DNA from: Podospora anserina | Taxonomy: Eukaryota | NCBI GenBank assembly: GCA_017654855.1 | Contig: CM030335.1 | Span: forward strand, 2,294,001 to 2,358,000 | DNA: 64,000 nucleotides | Direction: 5' to 3' | Shown: piece after piece, positions 1 through 60,900 of the stretch | How positions within the stretch are numbered: the first letter of the stretch is position 1 | Layout: each line of letters opens with the position of its first letter | The notes under the pieces: generated by a model | Told to the model about the DNA's origin: nothing | The model's input: the letters and a program-made list of their open reading frames with translations, nothing else | The model's database searches: none | Made by a program: the position numbers and the translations under genes

Positions 1-241
1 ATCCGTGGGCCGTTATTCTGGGTTTGGGGGCTGGGTACATTTGTTTGTATACTACGACTTTGCATGTGGTTGGCATGGCGTTTGAGCTTTTTGATGTTGG
101 GGATTTGCATGGTCCAAGCATTGTTTGGTAGAGCTTTGAAGTATAAAGCAGAGTGTGCAAGCGTTGATGATGTTTTCTGTGGACTGTTTACTTGAGTGCT
201 CAACTATGTCTTCTGTGATTTGAGGTTTGCTTGGTGACCCC

Positions 242-460
242 ACGTCGTGGACAAAATAATACAGACTGCAACGCATAATGAAGGGCTTAAAAGATGATAG
301 AAAACATATTCGACTATCTTTTCAAGGCCTTTGGGCTCTCTTTTCAATGCCTTTCGACAATCTGTAAAGGTCGATTAACTGTGACTGAATACCTATCATG
401 TTGTCTTCAAGTCCTGTTGACGATCTTTTCAGGCATACTGGCTATCAGTAAAGGTCTATT
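242..460. repeat. Degenerate 21-bp-period array (AGGCCT-core family), copy 1
   Basis: Core hexamers at 283 GGGCTT, 325 AGGCCT, 347 ATGCCT, 368 AGGTCG, 389 ATACCT, 410 AGTCCT, 431 AGGCAT and 452 AGGTCT, spaced 21-22 bp. Spacers right of about 304 are reverse complements of the family spacer (e.g. 416-430 GTTGACGATCTTTTC). The left boundary is approximate. Confidence 0.75.
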
Positions 461-1224
461 TCTTTTCTATCCGCAGCATGGTGACTTACTCAGGAAAAGT
501 GACAACCTGTTGACTTCTCTATACTTCGCCAGGTACACGTTCAGGCACCAACGTCATCCGCGGGGGTCTAATCTGCATTTCTATCCAGCTCCCAGTCCTC
601 TCCCACAGCATTGAACTCCCCTCTCAACATCATGTGAGAGTGGTCACAAGGTCAGTTGGATTTTTCCTCCTCCTCAATTCAGCGTAATGATTGGTTACTT
701 CATCGCACTGTGCCATAATGTACCTACTTGGAGAAGTTGGGGTAAGTAAGACTCGGGGTTCTTCCAAGCTCTCTGTATGGTGATGACGATGTTGACTTTC
801 TGCGGGGTACCTGTAAAACCAAGGCTGTATTCATTTGTTGAAAAGTATCTGTAAAGGAAAATACCTAGTAGGTATAGACATCGCACAAAGACATACGTGG
901 GCTGTCGAAAGCTGATGATGCACTTCCTAAGGTATGCTCACTATACAACATAATGCTTCCGATATATGAGAGTATTCTCATGCCAGTGTATGCTTCCTCC
1001 ATGCTCATGCCATGCTGTCATGCTGTCATGCTCTAGTATATCCCTTGAGACCGCTTGCTATACCTGTTTCCCTTGCCTTGTTGCCAATGACACCCAAACA
1101 CCCCTGTATAATACAAAACTTTAACCTGATAACCTCTATCCTAGACTGAATCCCCAATAATGATTACCAAACATGAATAACAGTATACCCTAACAAACCC
1201 CCTCCCCAAACCATACCCATAATC

Positions 1225-10699: not shown

Positions 10700-10841
10700 G
10701 GGGGTTAAAGAGAGTGATGGTGTAGATGTTTGGTCTTGTGTTAGTTTGAGATACCTATGAATGAGATGTTAGTGAGATTTGTAGACGTAGATATTGCGCA
10801 GCAGGTTGTGGGCACGGAAGTGAAACTGCTATGTGGAATAG

Positions 10842-11121
10842 ATGCCTGAAGTGTAGTTAAGAGGCCTTTCAATATGTTAATATGGCCTTTTAACGTGATT
10901 GATATGCCTTTCAACATGATCAACACGCCTTCCGATATAAATAAGTGATAGACCTTTAAAAATCATCAAGAGGCCTCTGGACATGATTGATAGGCTTCAA
11001 AAGATAGTTAATAGGCCATTCAAAATAATCAATAGGCTTTACAACATAACTGACAGGTGTTTTAGGACAATTAGGAGGCATGTTTATGAGATCTTGAGGT
11101 CTTCAGATTAGGTCAAGGTCT
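10842..11121. repeat. Degenerate 21-bp-period array (AGGCCT-core family), copy 2
   Basis: Cores at 10842, 10862, 10883, 10904, 10925, 10950, 10971, 10992, 11013, 11034, 11055, 11076, 11097 and 11116. All steps are 21 bp except one 25-bp step and the two terminal steps (20 and 19). Spacers resemble TTCAACATGATCAAC and CAAAAGATAGTTAAT. Confidence 0.85.
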
Positions 11122-12489
11122 CTTTTATTTAGTCCTCTACACGATATGTAATTGTAGACGTAATTCATCATGCCCTGTGAGTTTAGAAACTTCCAGGCAT
11201 ATCTATCCACACCAGCCAAAATTATACCCCTGAATAACCCCTTAGTACTTTGGATGTGCAGCTGGCACACGAGACCAGTATCTTTTCTTTTTCAGGAATC
11301 AGTTCTCACAAATTGTTGCTGTTTGCAGGTGAGAGACAACAAGATGCTATCCACACTGCCACATGCTCATCGTTCTTTCAACCGTAATTAAACATGGAGT
11401 ACTCGAACCACATTCCAATTCCACCACCTCAAAGGGAATCATCCGATGGCAATTTCCATTCACTCTTCCACAATAGCAATTTATGGACTTGAGATATTGC
11501 CCAAATGTGAATGACAATAACACCTTAACAGGTAGGTGATTGACAGTGCCTGAATGCCAACAAACACAGGGCCAGACATTCACTGGTGGGCCGTGCGTTG
11601 CCGCTAACAGCCGCTACTGCTACCTGTGTGAGAACCAACGCACAGCCAGCGAGAAACACAGCGCAACCCAAGCCGCAGGCGTCACCACTCGGGCTCTTAT
11701 TTTCCGCTGCTTGAGTAGTCAGCCTCATCTGGACACCCCTCAACCTGGCAACGACAGGAAGAGAGAAATTGCCAACTGAATCGCGACATCGGAGGTGTGG
11801 TTGGTTTCTGGATCGACAAGATATCAGAAACACCGTCGTATCAATTCCTCGGCTTGCTCAGGTACCATCCGCCATCCCCTCCAGGTCAGCATATCCAGCT
11901 CGCCTTGCCTGCAGCAGCCAGCCCAACCGCCAACGCAGACCCCCGCCAGATCCAGTTTCGGCACCGTGCACCTGCCAGGTCCTATTTTCTTCTGCTGGCG
12001 ACCATTCTTCCGAAATTTGATCTCGTTCGGCCGACTTTTGGTTCAGCTTGAGCATATCCCCCCCTCTTCTACTTCCTACACCGTCTCTCTCTCTCTCACT
12101 GCGACCCGCTTCGATTAGTCGTCGACAGAGCCACTCTTTCTCGGCGACCGACTACTACAGACAACAAAACAGATCCAGCCTACCCCTCGATCGACGACCG
12201 ACCGACCGCTTCCCCTTACCCCTCGCTACGCCCAGACTGTACGATAGCGTCACCGCTTTCACACGGGCAAGCACACAAATTAGAGGAAATCATAGACAGG
12301 ACAAAACCAATTTAGCAAGAGTTGGACCATAGAATACCAGGGCGACTCTCTCCCGACCATTCCGACCACCAGATCGTGTGCGGGGTTCATAGCCAATACC
12401 TACCTACCTACTACCAAAGTAACCAGCTCCGGATTTCGGGGCCTCATTCGTCTTCTTCTACAAGAGTCGCCACCTTTACCGCCGCAAAC

Positions 12490-19615: not shown

Positions 19616-19720
19616 TTCCCACACCGGGAATTGAACCCGGGACTTCAGGGAGTATCAGATCCTGAGATAATCTCAAGGATGACTGAAAGCCTGATATGCT
19701 GACCACTACACCATATGGGA
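19616..19720 (-). tRNA. tRNA-Glu (anticodon UUC) with a 33-nt intron
   Basis: Minus strand reads TCCCATA-TGGTGTAGTGGTCAGCATA-TCAGG-CT-TTC-A-[intron 19651-19683]-C-CCTGA-AGTC-CCGGG-TTCAATT-CCCGG-TGTGGGA-A. The cloverleaf is complete, the intron is at canonical position 37/38, and a T-rich Pol III terminator follows. Confidence 0.95.
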
Positions 19721-27914: not shown

Positions 27915-29441
27915 GGCTATAGCACCAGCGGGTGTGGACAGATGACGGCATACTTGGCAGTACCTAATCGAATCTCGTTTTCTTTCCGGTGCGTGGCAGA
28001 ACCCAATCATGACTGCCAGAGACGTGACCACTCGATGCGGCCTACACTGCAGAGAAAGTCTATCTTTTGCTGCATGTCATCAATTGAGCCCTACGCTTTG
28101 TGTCTCTGCTGCGTTTTGAATCGGGTAGAAGTCAGCAGTAGTGATGTACTGGGACTAAATCATTCGCTTAGGCAAGGTTCTTTTTTGGGTGTTTATGGGG
28201 CGGTTTTTTGGCACTTGGTTATAGGTTTCAGGGGTGGAATTGTTTCTTTTATTTTGGGACAGGGCCTAATCCGAGTTGGGGGGAGGATGACTGAAGAGGG
28301 TCCAATGGTTTGGATATCACCATCACGAAACTCACCACAATCACACACATTTCTCGCCGAAACTCTTCGAATCTCGAGGCCGGATGGAGCAAGAATCATC
28401 ACGGGAAGGACCAATTCCGGTGGGGTTGAGCGGCGGCAAAGGGAAGGGCGGAGTGTGTTTGTGTGTGTGGGGGGGTTGGTAAACTCTAACTACTTCTAGA
28501 AGCAAAAGATGGGAGGGAGACTCTAGGACGCTTCTGCGGCGGAGACGGGTATAATCACCGTCACCGGTGGTCCGGTTCCTCCTGGAAAGTGCGGTGGTAG
28601 CAGACATGCATGGCCCGTTTCATTGGGTCGACGGGAGGATCAAGAGGCGTGTTTCTTATTCATGGGTGGTGTTTCTTGGGGTATTGGGTTAGTTTGGGGG
28701 GCGAAGTCCGAAGGCGGCGAGGTATACGGTCAGGACTTGATATCACTTGGGGGGATGGGGCAAGACTGGAAACAAGGAACAAGGCGGCGAGCAAACAGGA
28801 AGCCAACAACCAAGACATCAACAACAATATACACGAACTTTTTCAACGCGATTTAGAAACTCTCTACAGGACATGGGTGTTTGAAATGCAGATATGATTC
28901 ATCCTTACATTTATCTGCCCGCGAGCTTACTCATCTCTACGGCGGTTGGCGTTGAATTGGCTGACGGCATCACACGAAGGTTGTATTGTAGCCTGGCCTT
29001 GGCTTTCTACAGCCCGATTTGGGGTATATCTTTCGAGCTGAGGCCGCAACGTTGCGGAGAAGGGGAGCAATGAATGGGTTGATCTCGATGCTTTTAAGAA
29101 GCGAAGAGAAGAAGGTGCATGGAGGGAATACGCTGTTTTGGTAAACTCCGGTTGCTGTCGGGGAAATACCGACTGATGATTTTGTGGTGATGGAGTCAGA
29201 AAGGGTAGCTCGTATTCTGGGGGTGGAGAGGATGTGCACTTGAATGTGTGTTATGGACCAAGTCTGCCTTGTGAGTTCACGGGAATGCCGATTGTTTATA
29301 CGTTCTGGGCAGCATGAGAAAAAGAAGGGGGATCGTCAACATGTCAAACTTGGCCTGCAATACTCTGGATGTAAAGACTGGGGTGGCAAAGTAAGTTGAC
29401 ATGTCACCATCCTCTAGATTGCGTGACAAAGGTTGGCCAAA

Positions 29442-29615
29442 ACTCCTCCAGAGATAGTGTATAGCTTTTTCAAGATAGTTCATAGACCTTGAATAATAAG
29501 TGATAGCCATTCAAAGATAGTGGACATGCCTATCCGTGTCTTGAGGATGCATTCAATAATAAATAATAACCATTAAATGATAGTGAACAGGCCTATCTGT
29601 ATCGTAAGGAGGCGT
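29442..29615. repeat. Degenerate 21-bp-period array (AGGCCT-core family), copy 3
   Basis: Nine cores exactly 21 bp apart: 29442 ACTCCT, 29463 AGCTTT, 29484 AGACCT, 29505 AGCCAT, 29526 ATGCCT, 29547 ATGCAT, 29568 AACCAT, 29589 AGGCCT and 29610 AGGCGT. Spacers include TTCAAGATAGTTCAT and TCAAAGATAGTGGAC. Confidence 0.75.
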
Positions 29616-29713
29616 AAGTCGATCGCCCATCTAAGTACATTTGCTAACTTACAGCACTGCTGATATTATCTGGGGCGGGCCCCTTCCCCAGATACCAGTC
29701 CTCTTTATAATCC

Positions 29714-33288: not shown

Positions 33289-34391
33289 CTTGTCACAATT
33301 ACCTGGATCCAATGGCCTCGCGTGGATCAAAAAAAAACCTAGTGTATCTCCAGCTTGTGGTGTTTGTCGCTCTCTCTACCAAACGTGGTTCATTCTCCGG
33401 ATGTAATATTAAGATGTGATGCTGAAATCGTCTGGAGGAATTCGCTGCCCTCTCTTTATTACCACATACCGTGTCCGTTCCGTGGTTCCTGCCCAACTGA
33501 GGTAACTTCACTCACACACGAAAAATGTCAGGCGCATTCTCATTGGCATGTGAAGTGCGAAATTGCAGCTGGCTGTTTGGGGGAAGAGCTAGGGACCAGG
33601 AGCTTTCACCCCCCACCCCACCCCCCCCACTTTTTGGCATCCCTGCAGCGCCTGATGTCATCCCAACTTAGCGCTTCACATGGGTCTTGGCATCCAATAT
33701 CCGATATCCACTACTTGGGTCTTGCGAATAACTTCACGTCGTTGCGGTAACCTTTGGTGTGGCTGAATGAAGGCGTAACTGGAACATGGTCGTCTGAGTG
33801 TGTTCAAAGAACACGAGCAGATGGCGTAAACGCCCATCTGTCAACAACTGATGACTCCGATGGTACGAACTACTACCGGCCTGGCAGCAGGAAAGATAAA
33901 TATCTCTCCCGACGCACATGCAACTGGGTAGACCACGTTTATTTCCATCTCTGTCTTTAAACTAAACAACAACATAGCAATGGGGTAGTCGTAGTAGCAG
34001 TAACCGGAAAATGATCCCAAGCAGAAGAAAACAAGCTGAAAAAGAAAAAAAGTAAAAAATAATCCATCAATCAAAATCAGAACAAGCTCGCTCGAGCAAA
34101 AACCCCCAATACAAACCCCATCGTTCCATGTACACATTTCAGACATCCCAAATCGTCACCATCCCCTTCCTAAGTCCAACCCAAGCCCTTGGTATCCCCC
34201 ATCATTATAAAACAAACCATGACAGATCCACCAACCCAACCCAACCCCAACCATACCGCCGTGAAGAAGTCGGAGGGATTCACCCCTTTCCCACATCTTC
34301 TTTTCCACCTCCATCCCATAACCTCCTACTATCCTCCTCTCGCCATCTTCTCCTTTCCCCATCATATCCCGTTTGCCCTGTTGCAACTCCC

Positions 34392-39064: not shown

Positions 39065-40843
39065 TCATGACTGATCCCCTCGTCTCAGCTTTAGAAGATC
39101 CACCAACTTCACCGACCCCTTCCCACCCCAGCCATTTGGGCCACTATCCACCTCTGGACGAATGGCGCAGTACCAAGCCCACGCCCTCCTATCGAGTTCT
39201 GCCACATCAAGATGATCCGCCCAGCTATCAAAAAGCAATCTCAACGCCCCAAGCAACAACCCCAAATTCTCCTCCCTCTCCGCCTCCAGTACTTTGGCCG
39301 TTTTATGCACCGCTTTTTTCTTTGAAGGGCTCGTCGCTGTTTCGTCGGCTGGTGGTGGTGATGGCTTCCCAAAACTCCTCAGCAGATACGATCTGGCCGC
39401 CTCGGGCCGGTGAATATGCATCCCCACCACATGGGTTAGCGGCTGCAGCTGCTTGCCTGACCCGTAACCTCCAACTGTGGTCCCAGGCTGGGCTTTTCTC
39501 ATGGCCTCGAGATCCAGGCCCCAAAGAGCCTCTCCTCCGAGTGAAATACTTCCTCCCGTCTTTCGCATTCGTTCACCGAGCGCAGACGTAACCGCATTTC
39601 TCATCAACCTCCACCTGTCCGGCCCTAACATCGTCCCTCCGAACCAACGGGTGAGAACGACAAGTGTATCGACCGCCCCAGCCTCCCGCATAACCTTCAG
39701 CATGAGATCCCCACACCCAGTCTCCCCATCATCAAACGACTCCTCCCTCATGGTCCTCTGAGTGAGCCAATTCGCATTCTCTGGCGGCTTCAGCCGGAAA
39801 GCCCAGGCATTATGCGTTGCACTCTTCAACTCAGGGTGATTATGCATCAAGCTCTCCATCAAGTACTTCCTCTGCGACGGTGACGTTAAATGAATGGCCC
39901 TCGCCACAAACTTGGAGTCCTTCATAATAATCGGCGGGCTCGTAGACCAAGTAGCCGTAGGTGTAGGCGCCGGGTCCAGCGTCGAGGCCGTCGTTGCACT
40001 CGTCGCCTGTGACCCTCCCGCTCCATCCTTTTTTTCGTCGCCGGACCTTTCCTCACCTTTCCACTCATACCCACTCCTTTTGAGAACCGCAACCTCCCTA
40101 CCCATTACCTTCACCCTCGGCTGACCTTCCCCATACCCCTCCTGATCCGCACTGGGGCCTTTGTCCAGTCCCAAACTCACAGCCTTGGACCGAGAGTTGG
40201 CGCTCACCACCGCCTGACCGAGGCTGAGTCTACTCGATAACGGCTGCTCAGGCATGGTATATCTAAGCATCTCCACCGCAAAGGCAAGTACGAGTGGCGC
40301 CCGGTTAGTTTCGATGACCGTCTCCTTTATAGTATCCTCGTCTGTGCATATTGGCAGCTCCAGGGAAGCCTCCAATTCCTGGGGGGTCATTTCAACAGGG
40401 CCAGTCATGAAAACGTCGCTTTTGGCGCGTTTGGATACCGGTGATGTGGATGATATTGATGATCCACGCTTGAGAACACCGCCGCCAGAGGGTGGTGATG
40501 ATGACTGTGTGGCATTTCTCTTGATGACGGCCTTGCAGGCGTTTTGGAGAGCGCGTGCGACCTTGTCGTCTTTGAGAGCTTCCTGAACGGTGGGGAGGGA
40601 CGCTTCGGATATTTGTTTGATGCTGTTTTGACTTGTTAGTTGATATTGAATCGGTATAGATGTCGATAAAGTCGTATATTCCCAAACGAATATGAGGTCG
40701 AGGCTCAAAATCAAGCCGATAGCTCACCTCCTGAGATCAACTGCCTGGAGGGCTTTGATTGATGTCATAGCTTGGAGCATGGGCATTTTTCTTGTGACGG
40801 TCATGAGCCGTATGAGGTCTTGGAGATCCTGTTGGGTAGCCAT
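39065..40843 (-). CDS. IMPACT/UPF0029 (YigZ-like) domain protein
   Basis: SKFVARA, ATHNAWAFR, DDGETGCG, and VVLTRWFGGTMLGPDRW are UPF0029 motifs. ATG at 40843, intron 40623-40727. Confidence 0.85.
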
Positions 40844-41066
40844 CTTTGCAATGTGACTGACTGCCTGGAAAACGATGAGGCCGGTAGACGTCTTCGTGAG
40901 AAATGTCGTGAAGACGAAGTGATGGTCGCGTGTGAGTGCCAGGAGAAGGGGCGAATCAGGATACCCCTGGCTAGCTTTGTGTGGGGAATCTAGGCACCTG
41001 TGGAGCCGTGTGCGGGAAGGTGGGGGGGTGGCATCATTGACAGAGAAAGACTGCAACAAGATAGCA

Positions 41067-41302
41067 AGGCCTTGAAAGACAATCAACAGGCCTTCAAACA
41101 TAATTAACAGGCCTTTAGGGATAGTTGATAGGCCCTGAACACGTATCAAAAGGCCTTGAAAATATATTAAAAGGCCTTCAAAACATATTAATAGGCCTTC
41201 GAAGATATTTACAGTCATCTCAATAGAGTTGAGAGGCCTTGAAAGACAGTCAAGAGGCATGCTAACCATCTTCTAAGGTCTGTTGATTATCTTTCAAGGC
41301 AT
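41067..41302. repeat. Degenerate 21-bp-period array (AGGCCT-core family), copy 4 (best preserved)
   Basis: AGGCCT-type cores at 41067, 41088, 41109, 41130, 41151, 41172, 41193, 41213, 41234, 41255, 41276 and 41297, with 21-bp steps and one 20-bp step. The approximate unit is AGGCCT-T(G/C)AAA(G/C)A(T/C)A(A/G)T(C/T)AAN. Confidence 0.92.
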
Positions 41303-41550
41303 TAATTATTTTGTCCATGACCTGACAAGGTGGGCCTTTACCGTGGTGAGCGTTGATTATGTAATCTCCACATTCGACACTCAACAAGAGTCTGATTGGC
41401 TGGAAAGCTCTGGCTCACTCAAGCTTCACAAATGACCATCAAGGGTGAGTGAGAGCTCACACCACACCCGCCCAGGCCACCACCGGATCCCGTACCCGGA
41501 CTTATATGAGAGCAGGGCAACACCCATCACCCCTCTCTCACACCACAACC

Positions 41551-42932
41551 ATGGCCTCCCGACTAAGGCTGTCCTCAAGGACACCCTTCTCATTACACCC
41601 TCACCTCTATTCACCTTCCAACCTGCCCAGCTACTCCCGCCAATTAACCCTCTCTTCAGCCCTTCAATACGCCAAACGAAAACCATCCCCATCCTCACCA
41701 CCCTCGCCACCCCAAAGCCCCCTCCGCTCCAAAAAGTCCCCCCTCCCCCCACCGAACAACTTCGTCCCCCCAAAACCAAAACTCTCCCTCTACCGCGACG
41801 ACACCCCCACCTCAAAACCCCCCCTCACCCTAGAAGAAAACATCCAACGCCACCGCAAAATACCCCTCTACGGCGCCCTCGCAGTCGCCTTCCTCGCCTC
41901 CTTGTACATCTCAGCAGTAGTAACAAACACCTTCAAAAAAACCCCCGTCTCCGACCTCTCCCCCCCCTCGGCCCATCCCTCCCCCAACCTCACCCCTCCT
42001 GCTGCCCCCCAACTGGCCTACCCCCCTCATTAACCCCCGTCTCCGCCCTCGAATTCGACACCTCACTCAACACGTCCGAAAGCCTCTCCCGTATCACCGC
42101 CAACAGAACCTACCTCGCCAGCCGCGCCAAAGGCCACGTCTTGGAAGTAGCTTGTGGCACGGGGAGAAATCTGCCGTATTACAGCTGGGAGTATGTAGTT
42201 CACCCGTTCGAGGAATACTCCCCCGAGGAGCAGCTCGCCAAGGCGAAGAGTAGGATGGCGAAGATATTGGATATTAAAAGGGGGAGTTCATGGGGGTATG
42301 GGACAAAGTCCAAGGTTACGGCTGGTGAGAGGAGGGTGGGGGGGATGGAGGGTGAGGTTTTGTCATATACGGCGGTGGATGTCTCGCCTGAGATGTTGTC
42401 TGTTGCACGCAATCGACTAAGGGAGTCGGTGCCGGGGTTGAGGCAGGTGATGGCTAAGAAGAGGGCTGAGCCCTACCCAAAACTGACGAACCCTGAGGAG
42501 GTCGTGCCGGTGGTTGCTGCGCTGGATGGGAGGGTTCAGTTACTGCTTGGGGATGCAGAGGCGGGACTGCCAAGGGGGAGGGAGAGGTATGATACGGTTA
42601 TTCAGAGTTTCGGGCTTTGTTCGGTGAAGGATCCACAGGGGTTGCTGGTGAAGATGGCGGGGAGGGTGGTGCCCGGGACGGGGAGGATTTTGTTGCTGGA
42701 GCATGGGAGGGGTTGGTTTGGGTGGATTAATGGACTGCTAGATAAGTACGCGCCGGGGCATTTTCAGAAGTTTGGGTGTTGGTGGAATAGGGATATTGAG
42801 GGGTTGGTGAAGGGGGCGAGTGAGGAGCTGGGGGGGAGGTTGGAGGTGGTGAGGATGGATAGGCCGTGGTATCATGCGGGTACGACGGTGGTGTTGGAGT
42901 TGAGGGTGAAGGAGGAGGGGGAGGGGAAGTGA
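41551..42932 (+). CDS. OMS1: Mitochondrial SAM-dependent methyltransferase Oms1-like; one apparent frameshift
   Basis: An Arg/Ser-rich presequence (MASRLRLSSRTPF) and a TM segment lie in one frame. The methyltransferase motifs (AKGHVLEVACGTGRN, YDTVIQSFGLCSV, GRILLLEHGR, FGCWWNRDI) lie in the -1 frame. The junction falls among C-runs at about 41955-42030. Confidence 0.82.
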
Positions 42933-51198: not shown

Positions 51199-51397
51199 TT
51201 CAACAGGACTATTACTACTAGTTGGACTTCTTGCAACATCTTTCAAGGCCTTTATATTTTATGTCAAATCTTCCCCCATGTGAACTTCAATCATCCCCCG
51301 TATCTTGCCCCTTTTCTTGGTGCGAGTAGGGTGTGTTCCGCATACCTCCACACATGAACCCACCTTCCGAGCAATTTCTCCAACAAATCAAGTAACA

Positions 51398-54927: not shown

Positions 54928-54991
54928 AATCCAACATTTATCACCATGTTCGTTGAACGAATCCAACATTTATCATCATGTTCGTTGAACG
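54928..54991. repeat. 32-bp tandem duplication
   Basis: AATCCAACATTTATCACCATGTTCGTTGAACG (54928-54959) is followed directly by AATCCAACATTTATCATCATGTTCGTTGAACG (54960-54991), with one mismatch. Confidence 0.9.
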
Positions 54992-57942: not shown

Positions 57943-60900
57943 CTACGCCACAACGGGGCGGAGGATAGCCTCGAAGCGGGCGGCAACCTAGAAAACCCAT
58001 GTTAGAAGAGATTCAAGAGTGGAGGAAAAAGGATGACGTACCTCAGGAGCCGCCTTGATAAACGGCAGCTCAAAGAAATGAAACTTTTCATTCTTGAGCA
58101 ACTCGAGGATCGTGACCACGAGACCCCATGGCTGGGGCCAGTACCCAACCATGCGCTCCAAGAGAACTCGCACAATCTGCTGCCGAATCTCTGTCTCCTC
58201 CGGGTCGTCAAGATCGTGACCAAAAATTTCGACGATGGCATGGCTGAAATAGTTTGTCGACGCGTTGGCGAACCGGAGTTCGTTGACCATGCTGCTGAGA
58301 AGATAGTACCGTGTCTCGGCCGGCACCTCGGTGACCAGCATGTGCAGAGTCTTGACGTCGGGAGCCCCGGACACGAACACGGGCGCGTCACTGTTGTTAA
58401 CAGCGCGTTGGGAGGCCGCGTTGGCGATGTGGGAAACCACGGCGTCGACAACTCGGCGGTCGACATTGACAGGCACAAAGCCAAACGTGGTCAGGTCGGT
58501 ATCGGCGTGGTGCATCGCGTGCGTAATTTGGGCGATGGCGTCCTCCGAGGGTCCGTTTTGCAATGACTGCTCCAGGATGTCATAGAGCCCTAGTTCCTTG
58601 AGCTGGCCGGCGCAGTCATAAAAGCTCACCACCGGGTCCTTCATCTCGGGGATCCGATCAATCTTGAGTCCCGGCCGAAATGGATCGGGCACCTTGTCGA
58701 ACGGCGTCGTGGACGCCGACAAGATCATGTTGATGAGCTGTGTGGCATGCGAGGGCAGGCACTGGCATAGCTGCACATAGTTGGCAGAAAGATACTCCGG
58801 GAAGTCGTGGAAAAGCACAGCCACAAGCTTCACCGTGCCCGAGTACAGGTCCTTAGCGGCAAGGGACACTTCGAAAGCTTTCAGCATGTTGCCGAGATAA
58901 GAGAAGAGATGGGTGAGGAGCTTGGTGAAGGGCTCCCAGCCTGCCTGGTTGGGCATGCGCATGATCGCTGGGAGAAAGGCGCGGTGAGCCAAGAGACCCA
59001 TCCATTGAAACAAGAAGCCAGGGTACACAGCCGGCCGAAGGTCCCATAGACGTGCCGCAAAGTTGAGCACTATCTTTTCGCTCTCACTGTCTGAGAATCT
59101 CTCCGTCAGGTTCATAATCTGGTGGAAGAGATTGGAGAAGAAGCGGAAGAACACGCGTGGGTTGAAAGCGTCCCCGCGTCTAACGTGGTGGTTGTTCAAC
59201 ACAAGCACACCAAGAGCAAGGACAGAGTCCAGGAAGGCGACACGCGATGATTCGCTGGTGCCAGGAGCGTCGTGGGACTGAGTGAAGATGAGGATCATCT
59301 TGACGAGAGCGTCAACTGCCTGGAAGCTCTCGTTGCTGAAGCCTTCACCAAGGTGGCCACTTTGCTCAGCACGGTCGACGGATTTGTCGATTGCTTGCCT
59401 CGCAAAGACGAAAAAGTCCTCCTTGGTGACAATGTGCCGCCGCCAGTTCAACTGTTGCACAAACTTTGTGGCAGCCTTTTCCGAGGCGCAGTCGTTGTTG
59501 CATAGCTGCACCCATTCCTCAAAGATGTAGTCAAACTGCTCGAACTGAGCCTCGGGGGTTCGGTCAGGATGAATCTCGGGCGAAGGCCCCAGCACCTTGG
59601 CCTTGAACCGCTGGCCACCTGGCACTTCGGGCTCTTCAGTTATCCACGCCCAGGCTTCCTCCAAGCTCTGAACGAAATCGGTATAGAGATTGACAGGGGC
59701 CTCGCTGAACAGCGTAAGATCCATCAAGGACTCCAGAAACTCAATGGAACCGCTGCTCCGTTCATTCAACGCCTTGGCCATGGCTGCATCGATGCTGTGC
59801 CAATCAATGAGGTCCGTTCTGAGCAGCGCCGAGATCAGGGGCAGATTCAAAAAAGTACTACCTGACTGCTGGTAAAACAGCCAGCGGATCTGTTGACTCG
59901 TCGCCGGGCCCGCAACCTTTCGCAGCGTCTCCAGCACGTGGACCAGCGTCTCCAAGAGGAGGGAAGTGGGTTCGGGCTGCGGGCGGAAGAGAAGACCGGA
60001 GATTTGGGTCGCCACATAGACTGCAAATTCATCAGATGTCTGTTGAGTCTTGATTGTAAGCTGGACGACGGCGTCATGAATGTTGATAACTTCATGGGTC
60101 CGAGGGAGGTCCTCAAAGTGCTCCTCGGCCGTGTTGCTGACGGCAGTCGCCAGCTTTTCCAACAAGCTGTTCACCCGTTCCGCCACGTTCCGAGCGTCGA
60201 CAGGGCTGATGCCAGGTTGTCGGCCATTGACCATGCCAGCATGAACCGGAGGGTAATGCTGAGGTTGGACGCCCATGTGGGGAAGCGATGGGGTTTCAGC
60301 AGGGGTAGGAATGGTGGACACCGAGTTGTACTGGTCACCGAGGACTTCGTTTGCAATTGATCTCGCATCCGACGATGAAGGAACGTGCGAAGGCGTAACA
60401 GAGGCGGCGGCGGCGGCAGCGGCGGCAGCAGCCGCAGCAGCAGTCACCCTTGATTGCCGAGCAAAATCATCGTAGATGGCCATTTGCTCATCATTGAGGC
60501 CGCTCAAGCTGGGCTGCAGCTTGAAAGGAGCGGGGATAGTCCAGGCCCAGCGGTTCAGGCGGGGATCCATGAATGGGTCGTTGGGTCGGTTGATGCGGTG
60601 ATGGCGGCGCGCCTCGAGATCTTCTGCGAGTAAGTCCTCAATCTCGGGGACACCGCGCTCCTCAGCCGACTTTTCGATGATGCTGGAAGCCAGCTCCATG
60701 TTGGAGTTGACACACAACATGATGATACCTTCTGGGAGACCCTGAGGAAGCTCCGAGGCGAGCTGGCGGAGATAGTTGGTGAAGTTGGCGCGCAATGGCT
60801 CCTTGGAGGTCACAAGTGCCAAGCTCCCAGCAGTAGACTTGACCATGTTGACGGCAGCCATCCGAACCCTGTCCGGGTCGCCCTCGGTTGCGAAGTCCTT

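Follow-up and report, generated by a model that had tools for sequence, protein, structure and literature searches.

A stretch of 64,000 nucleotides from Podospora anserina (assembly GCA_017654855.1, contig CM030335.1, positions 2,294,001 to 2,358,000), hereafter called the window, contains four intergenic arrays in which a palindromic hexamer and an AT-rich spacer recur every 21 bp, although the individual units differ at many positions both within and between the arrays. Such a combination of a locked period with a loose sequence raises the question of the nature of these arrays, which could be minisatellites, protein-binding lattices maintained by the host, or remnants of a mobile element. 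We therefore analyzed the units, the boundaries, and the genomic surroundings of each array.

Four degenerate arrays, their unit and their surroundings

The four 21-bp-periodic arrays of the original prediction were all recovered at roughly their expected coordinates, and all four are located between genes, as had been proposed. The predicted extents were about right for the periodic parts, but the repeated entity is larger, with non-periodic shared ends extending each array; the entities containing arrays 1 to 4 are referred to as copies A1 to A4 (Table 1), and their length by candidate bounds is 240–362 bp. The number of degenerate units per array is 8–13, slightly lower than the predicted 9–14. 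The claim of a near-constant spacing holds: among the 38 distances between successive cores, 33 measure exactly 21 bp, and the five others deviate by −1, +4, −2, +1, and +1. The last core of A2 has its true start at position 11116.

The unit consensus derived from 33 hand-registered units is AGGCCTTNAAAGATAATYAAN, where an AGGCCT-like core is followed by an AT-rich 15-nt spacer to complete the 21-nt register, and the best-kept positions are 1, 6, and 7. Mismatches to the consensus affect 35 of 231 core positions and 131 of 396 spacer positions, a contrast that is partly due to ascertainment because the units were chosen with a core-seeded matrix. The four elements (1187 bp) contain 36 AGGCCT hexamers with at most one mismatch, against 280 in the remaining 62,813 bp. 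Pairs of core-like hexamers at lag 21 were found exclusively inside the elements (20 pairs, versus none elsewhere in the window), whereas in 2000 shuffles of the elements such pairs averaged 0.0075 and never exceeded one. Tandem Repeats Finder reported a period of 21 for A4 (41066–41200, 6.4 copies, 70% matches) and in three rows for A2 (10856–11049). Arrays 1 and 3 were not detected by this program in the window because they are too degenerate. The self-identity of A3 is higher at lag 63 (0.46) than at lag 21 (0.39), and therefore this copy appears to contain a higher-order duplication of three units (63 nt). The top Tandem Repeats Finder score of the window (121) belongs to a separate locus at 54928–54991, which consists of two tandem copies of a 32-nt unit with 96% identity.

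The copies A1, A2, and A3 are located 3' of a Dna2-like gene, a Gryzun/TRAPPC11-like gene, and an unnamed gene, respectively, whereas A4 lies between the divergent IMPACT-like and methyltransferase-like genes and fills half of that promoter. A Pfam scan of 19 long open reading frames (ORFs) identified Dna2, Foie-gras/Gryzun (TRAPPC11-like), Aim21, Seipin, UPF0029/IMPACT, methyltransferase, VIT1, and Not1 domains. This housekeeping-rich region did not reveal any transposase among the 19 scanned ORFs. The exon at 39065–40621 (minus strand) shares 99% identity with a cluster of IMPACT-domain proteins named from Podospora pseudoanserina and 89% with proteins of Apiosordaria and Triangularia, which places the window in the P. 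anserina species complex. In the 5' part of the methyltransferase-like gene, four sequencing runs lack 2 nt at position 41956 and have G for C at 41961, so either the source of the assembly differs from these runs at 41956–41961 or the sequence contains a local error.

No Rfam families or tRNAs overlap the four arrays. Elsewhere in the window, an Rfam tRNA match spans 105 nt at 19616–19720 (minus strand), is presumably intron-bearing, and is absent from the ARAGORN output; conversely, ARAGORN places a tRNA-Trp at 60127–60208 (plus strand) inside the Not1-like ORF without support from Rfam. A dispersed repeat of approximately 190 bp is located at 33741–33933, where the contig depth reaches 195–284 versus about 68 in one DNA-like run and 101–188 versus about 50 in another. 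Many contigs end or branch at this repeat, and the contigs guessed to derive from RNA branch there as well. A short hairpin (cagatggcg...cgcccatctg) lies within this repeat, which has no Rfam match at the gathering score and may represent another small mobile element. In the two contig sets guessed to be RNA-derived, none of the listed pieces extends over array 3 or array 4, which is uninformative as to their expression.

Table 1. Coordinates of the four copies and of their parts in the window (position 1 is the first nucleotide of the window).
Feature	Position	Strand	Remarks
Copy A1	239–478	+	approximate bounds; terminal motif, one ACTGCAAC-type unit, 1 forward and 4–7 reverse units, decayed end
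Copy A2	10790–11151	+	approximate bounds; about 10 forward units and two of uncalled orientation
Copy A3	29416–29698	+	most decayed copy; outer bounds uncertain; periodic part 29442–29630
Copy A4	41025–41326	+	decayed left end, ACTGCAAC unit, 10 forward and 2 reverse units, intact right terminal motif
Left arm of A4 inverted repeat	41066–41114	+	partner arm 41255–41303
Terminal 20-mer CACGTCGTGGACAAAATAAT, A1 left end	241–260	+	2 matches in the window, 0.01 expected
Terminal 20-mer, A4 right end	41305–41324	-	outward-facing; 18/20 identical to that of A1
Candidate target-site duplication of A1, GC[T/A]TGGTGAC	229–238		9/10 (7 exact); partner 476–485
Candidate target-site duplication of A2, TTGTAGACGTA	10779–10789		11/11; partner 11152–11162
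Candidate target-site duplication of A4, AAGGTGGG	41017–41024		8/8 (9/11 extended); partner 41327–41334
Solo fragment corresponding to the A4 right-end module	51238–51261	+	last reverse unit and start of terminal motif; 21/24 identical

Shared ends, opposed arms and flanking direct repeats

We searched the 64-kb window with nhmmer using each array with its flanks as a query. The alignment of copy A4 with A2 spans almost the whole element (E = 2.2e-17; 270 nt, query positions 28–297 against 10868–11140), and A4 also matches A1 on the reverse strand (E = 7.6e-11) and itself in reverse (E = 2e-17). The weakest member of the family is A3, which is matched at E = 0.00056 by A2 and at E = 0.011 by A4, and these searches have not identified any further matches in the window. 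Besides the periodic parts, the copies share terminal sequences. The terminal 20-mer CASGTCRTGGACAAAATAAT was found only twice in the window, marking the left end of A1 and, in inverted orientation, the right end of A4, whereas the right end of A2 possesses a 10/13 version of the motif (P = 0.005). Overall, the terminal 13-mer is significant at three of the eight ends, and the other five ends score a non-significant 7–8 out of 13. At the left side, A1 and A4 have in common a unit containing ACTGCAAC. The solo fragment scores 31 against the A4 right-end module, while none of 4861 random stretches scored above 22. Judged by these alignments, the arrays are evidently copies of one bounded element with a common descent and not independent minisatellites.

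The orientation of spacers was assigned by scoring each of them in both directions (F, forward; R, reverse; ?, uncalled). The resulting strings are FFFFFFFFFFRR for A4 and ?F??RR?RR for A1, while A2 (F?FFFFFFFFF??) and A3 (?FFF?FF??) demonstrate a forward run only, with uncalled ends. The element therefore appears to consist of a run of forward units followed by reverse units, with arm lengths specific to each copy. The arms are very unequal, with forward-to-reverse ratios of 10:2 in A4 and 1:4–7 in A1, and the total unit numbers also differ between the copies. The core lattice remains in phase through the flip because the last spacer of the forward run and the first of the reverse run share one palindromic core. 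In A4, the two 49-nt arms are 80% complementary, and the single strand is predicted to fold into a hairpin of −47.4 kcal/mol (z = −5.63; none of 100 shuffles was as good). The folding of A1 and A2 is no better than that of shuffled sequences (z = −1.74 and −1.44, respectively), and the outer 45 nt of both ends within a copy are significantly inverted in none of the four copies.

We further checked the 45-nt regions outside the motif-defined ends for direct repeats, using 4000 placements as a control. The longest exact repeats were TGGTGAC (7 nt) for A1, TTGTAGACGTA (11 nt) for A2, TCCTCT (6 nt) for A3, and AAGGTGGG (8 nt) for A4; in the controls, repeats of at least 7, 8, and 10 nt had frequencies of 0.11, 0.033, and 0.003, respectively. 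The in-register repeat pairs match at 9/10 positions for A1, 12/13 for A2, and 8/8 (or 9/11) for A4, and thus are non-uniform in length. Their Fisher combination, computed by hand, is about 1e-3. The copy A3 has no credible target-site duplication, as its 6-mer is reached by approximately one third of the controls (0.34). At the two best-kept ends, A1-left and A4-right, the duplication and the 13-mer core of the terminal motif are 9 nt apart, whereas the worn ends show distances between 5 and 19 nt. We conclude from these comparisons that the 8–11-bp flanking repeats at three of the four copies are probable target-site duplications. This range of lengths is compatible with Mutator/foldback-type and hAT-type insertion alike. 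Members of the hAT superfamily are characterized by a uniform 8-bp duplication, YARNG-type termini, and the target preference nTnnnnAn. An 8-bp duplication is perfect in A4 (8/8) and nearly so in A1 (7/8), but A2 has 11/11, and the best-kept ends, CAGGT and CACGT, differ from the hAT termini in their fifth base. The 8-mers of A1 and A2 would fit the target preference and that of A4 would not; no assignment to hAT was based on it.

Divergence of the units and competing explanations

The units are off the consensus at 27% of the defined positions (155/570). These changes include 78 transitions and 77 transversions, and the sum of C>T and G>A is only 21 of 155. Repeat-induced point mutation was thus rejected as the source of the divergence, as there is no excess of C-to-T/G-to-A changes and transitions are about as frequent as transversions. 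The identity between units is 0.58–0.59 within an array and 0.54 between arrays (permutation p = 0.0004), while adjacent and non-adjacent units are nearly equal in identity (0.59 and 0.58). Colinear unit-by-unit homology between the copies was not found in their interiors, the exception being the last two or three units. Arrays 3 and 4 are unchanged in contigs of two DNA-like runs with the same organism label; in these runs, no contig joint skips either array, and there is almost no extra depth over them at 90% or higher likeness, of the kind that near-identical sibling copies would produce. The family therefore looks old and inactive. Such an age is in tension with the intact 8–11-nt duplications. 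Divergence of the units after insertion would make intact duplications unlikely, suggesting that most of the heterogeneity either predates insertion or reflects in-register turnover of the arrays; the lack of interior colinearity sits awkwardly with intact duplications unless the arrays turn over faster than their flanks.

The most plausible scenario, which we consider likely, is that the arrays represent four decayed copies and one end fragment of an old foldback-like family of MITEs (miniature inverted-repeat transposable elements), with the AGGCCTT cores as putative transposase-binding sites. The original prediction had listed a relic of a repeat-armed non-autonomous transposon among its options, and this option is the one supported by the shared terminal motif, the orientation flip, the A4 hairpin, the flanking direct repeats, and the solo end. 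The copies also occupy intergenic sites of unrelated kinds within a transposase-free housekeeping region, which is in line with it. The element would be a short (about 240–360 bp) non-coding class II transposon of the foldback/MITE type, each copy of which would have outward-facing terminal motifs of approximately 20 nt enclosing AGGCCTT cores every 21 bp, with AT-rich 15-nt spacers pointing in one direction in the left arm and in the opposite direction in the right arm, and with unequal, copy-specific unit numbers. An autonomous element would reside elsewhere; the repeat length and the foldback architecture suggest that it could be Mutator/foldback-like or hAT-like. Its transposase would possess a DNA-binding domain reading the AGGCCTT core, and sites spaced by two helical turns would allow multimers to assemble along a single face of each arm and draw the two ends towards each other. 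By analogy, multiple transposase sites in repetitive ends should look like a 7-nt core that recurs in both arms at intervals of two helical turns. The predicted arrangement of binding cores on one helical face thus survives as an idea of binding sites, but we infer their reader to be a transposase and not a host factor. Only the lineages that retain both cores and phase would stay mobilized, whereas the spacers would drift, and units would be gained, lost, or converted in whole 21-bp steps. Selection for mobilization combined with such whole-unit steps would explain the locked period with a loose sequence. The copies in the window are probably immobile intergenic relics. Weighing against this scenario are the outer ends, which are not significantly inverted in any copy, the motif that is significant at three of the eight ends, the ordinary folding of A1 and A2, and the absence of a credible duplication at A3; moreover, neither an autonomous partner nor an empty site emerged from the sequences searched.

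An alternative that we regard as unlikely is that a shorter mobile or seeded sequence, comprising the ends and one or two units, was inserted first, and that slippage or unequal exchange later multiplied the 21-bp unit on the spot, giving rise to locus-grown minisatellites on a transposon scaffold. This scenario agrees with the higher identity of units within than between arrays, the three-unit duplication of A3, the interior units without colinear counterparts in other copies, and the variable unit numbers. However, recent local slippage is not visible in the comparison of adjacent with non-adjacent units, all four copies are of similar size (8–13 units), A4 and A2 align end to end, and the in-phase flip of spacers in A4 and A1 is not a product of slippage. 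Independent origins are extremely improbable: the degenerate tandem structure and the detection of two of the four arrays by Tandem Repeats Finder could suggest four unrelated neutral minisatellites with a unit similar by chance, but this is contradicted by the full-length homology and the shared non-periodic terminal sequence, by the absence of lag-21 core pairs elsewhere in the window, and by the presence of a solo end fragment. The hallmarks of a locus-grown minisatellite, namely unshared non-repeat flanks and a greater likeness of neighbouring units, are not seen here, as the ends are shared between copies and adjacent and non-adjacent units are nearly equal in identity.

We also give little credence to a host-selected protein-binding lattice, transposon-derived or not, in which a factor would read the AGGCCTT cores on one helical face and the arrays would serve as boundary, nucleosome-organizing, origin, or recombination elements at gene ends. 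This was the option favoured in the original prediction, and nothing in the window speaks for it specifically. The phase kept in 33 of 38 intervals despite 27% divergence, the approximately twofold better preservation of cores than spacers, the unbroken core lattice across the orientation flip, and the location of all sites at gene boundaries are in line with this explanation. The features of phase and core, however, would equally follow from selection for mobilization, and the contrast between core and spacer is in part ascertainment; moreover, transposon-like ends and flanking duplications are present at the copies, whose sites are mixed, comprising three 3' regions and one divergent promoter. 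A bolder variant, very improbable in our estimate, postulates present-day host selection, where a domesticated transposase domain or a host factor coats the AGGCCTT cores on one face and the elements have been co-opted genome-wide as gene-boundary or chromatin-phasing modules. Such selection would explain how the phase survived although the units have diverged by 27%, the approximately 40 units having just five small indels.

Related elements and searches in other genomes

The original prediction knew of no named element that matches the arrays. Although no named family was matched in our analysis either, the architecture matches that of the foldback-like elements, which include Tm1, FB, and Galileo. 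One of the closest descriptions is that of Tm1, a Mutator/Foldback element of root-knot nematodes, whose terminal inverted repeats (TIRs) are formed by variable numbers of 13–15-bp tandem repeats with unequal arms and asymmetric end motifs, and which has 8–10-bp target-site duplications, MITE-like members, and a known transposase-bearing member (PMC3169594). As described there, Tm1 resembles the putative Podospora element in its non-coding MITE-like members, arms of short tandem units whose numbers vary between arms and copies, non-inverted short stretches at the extreme ends, and a decaying, probably inactive family. The differences include the unit, which in Tm1 is 13–15 bp long and unrelated in sequence, whereas the unit in the fungal host Podospora has 21 bp and a palindromic AGGCCT core, as well as the very unequal Podospora arms (10:2 and 1:4–7), known here from non-autonomous copies, as opposed to the transposase-bearing member of Tm1.

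A parallel for repeated binding sites is provided by the Galileo THAP domain, which was reported to bind sites in the tandem repeats of the TIRs by footprinting; for Galileo and Foldback, the authors proposed that repeated sites give binding specificity and a higher-order synapsis (PMC3688188). The Drosophila Foldback and Galileo elements thus share with the Podospora family the tandem repeats in inverted arms, with multiple transposase sites that in Podospora would be deduced by analogy. Both are described as kilobase-scale elements, and Galileo belongs to the P superfamily, whereas the whole Podospora element is only about 300 bp. Tetris from Drosophila virilis (PMC4079207) is likewise presented as a non-autonomous, foldback-like, modular element that exists in many rearranged forms and has tandem repeats inside; these have a length of about 220 bp and expanded into satellite arrays, and no such expansion was seen in the Podospora window. 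The Emigrant MITE and Lemi1 of Arabidopsis (PMC1636448) offer a further likeness, as the TIRs and subterminal repeated motifs of the MITE are bound by proteins of the related autonomous element, but Emigrant is pogo-like (Tc1/mariner) and is not known to have a regular 21-bp lattice.

In P. anserina itself, the annotated MITEs are described as shorter than 500 bp and located in euchromatin (PMC8105982), and a curated Podospora repeat library, PodoTE-1.00, is available (PMC10936905; Enterprise preprint 10.1101/2020.03.25.007153). As described, these MITEs are similar to our elements in belonging to the same species complex, in their size below 500 bp, and in their euchromatic location. The main texts of Espagne 2008, PMC8105982, PMC10936905, the Enterprise preprint, and the 2025 centromere preprint do not appear to describe the family, but their supplementary repeat tables may list it. 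Our literature search found no paper on foldback MITEs in filamentous fungi or on foldback transposable elements in Ascomycota, which does not prove that there is none. The foldback-like MITE family would thus be new unless it is already included in the Podospora repeat library.

We scanned metagenomes for three AGGCCTT cores at a spacing of 21 nt and obtained at least 120 loci. When 287 pattern matches were rescored on the spacer alone, the best score was 13.1, compared with 37.9 and 23.6 for the two matches from the window. Two contigs matched by nhmmer, L007 and L015, were rejected as relatives, as they contain arrays of a unit of approximately 10–11 nt, AAAGGCCTTTAA, and a third locus, L120, was rejected as a homogeneous 21-nt array in an unrelated context. 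The metagenome matches listed thus included unrelated AGGCCTT-bearing repeats only and no relative. The arrays of AAAGGCCTTTAA extend over hundreds of base pairs (960–1273 in L007 and 3610–4500 in L015) with degenerate units of about one helical turn each, and have a palindromic GGCC centre as in Podospora, but are not homologous by the spacer score.

Because 21 bp correspond to seven codons, arrays 1 and 4 contain long open frames (291–614 on the plus strand and 40724–41272 on the minus strand) reading as FEGLLI-type heptads. The open frame of array 4 is continuous and in phase with exon 1 of the IMPACT-like gene, which a gene caller could wrongly extend. A word-indexed protein search with translated array 4 (77 aa, minus strand) returned no candidate, whereas a HMMER search against 1.84 billion representatives returned 34 matches at E ≤ 0.001. 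Among the 23 of these matches that were inspected, most are homogeneous, unrelated heptad repeats, and three (P0136, P0142, and P0152) are heterogeneous. The interpretation of the arrays as coding heptads was rejected because these searches yielded no homologues. The predicted 102-aa P0136 from a Logan contig of 17428 nt comprises heterogeneous FEGLLM/FKGVLA/FQSLLI heptads (E = 1.5e-05 against translated array 4), and its sequence may represent a related array in another genome.

Under the preferred interpretation as a foldback-like MITE family in a model fungus, the phase-locked lattice becomes an ordinary, testable object, and the two-turn spacing of its 7-nt core provides a clean substrate for studying how a transposase recognizes internally repetitive ends. 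The location of A4 in the divergent promoter of the IMPACT-like and methyltransferase-like genes could affect the expression of both genes. If the family is absent from the Podospora library, its addition would allow the arrays to be masked and not mistaken for regulatory elements or coding heptad repeats.
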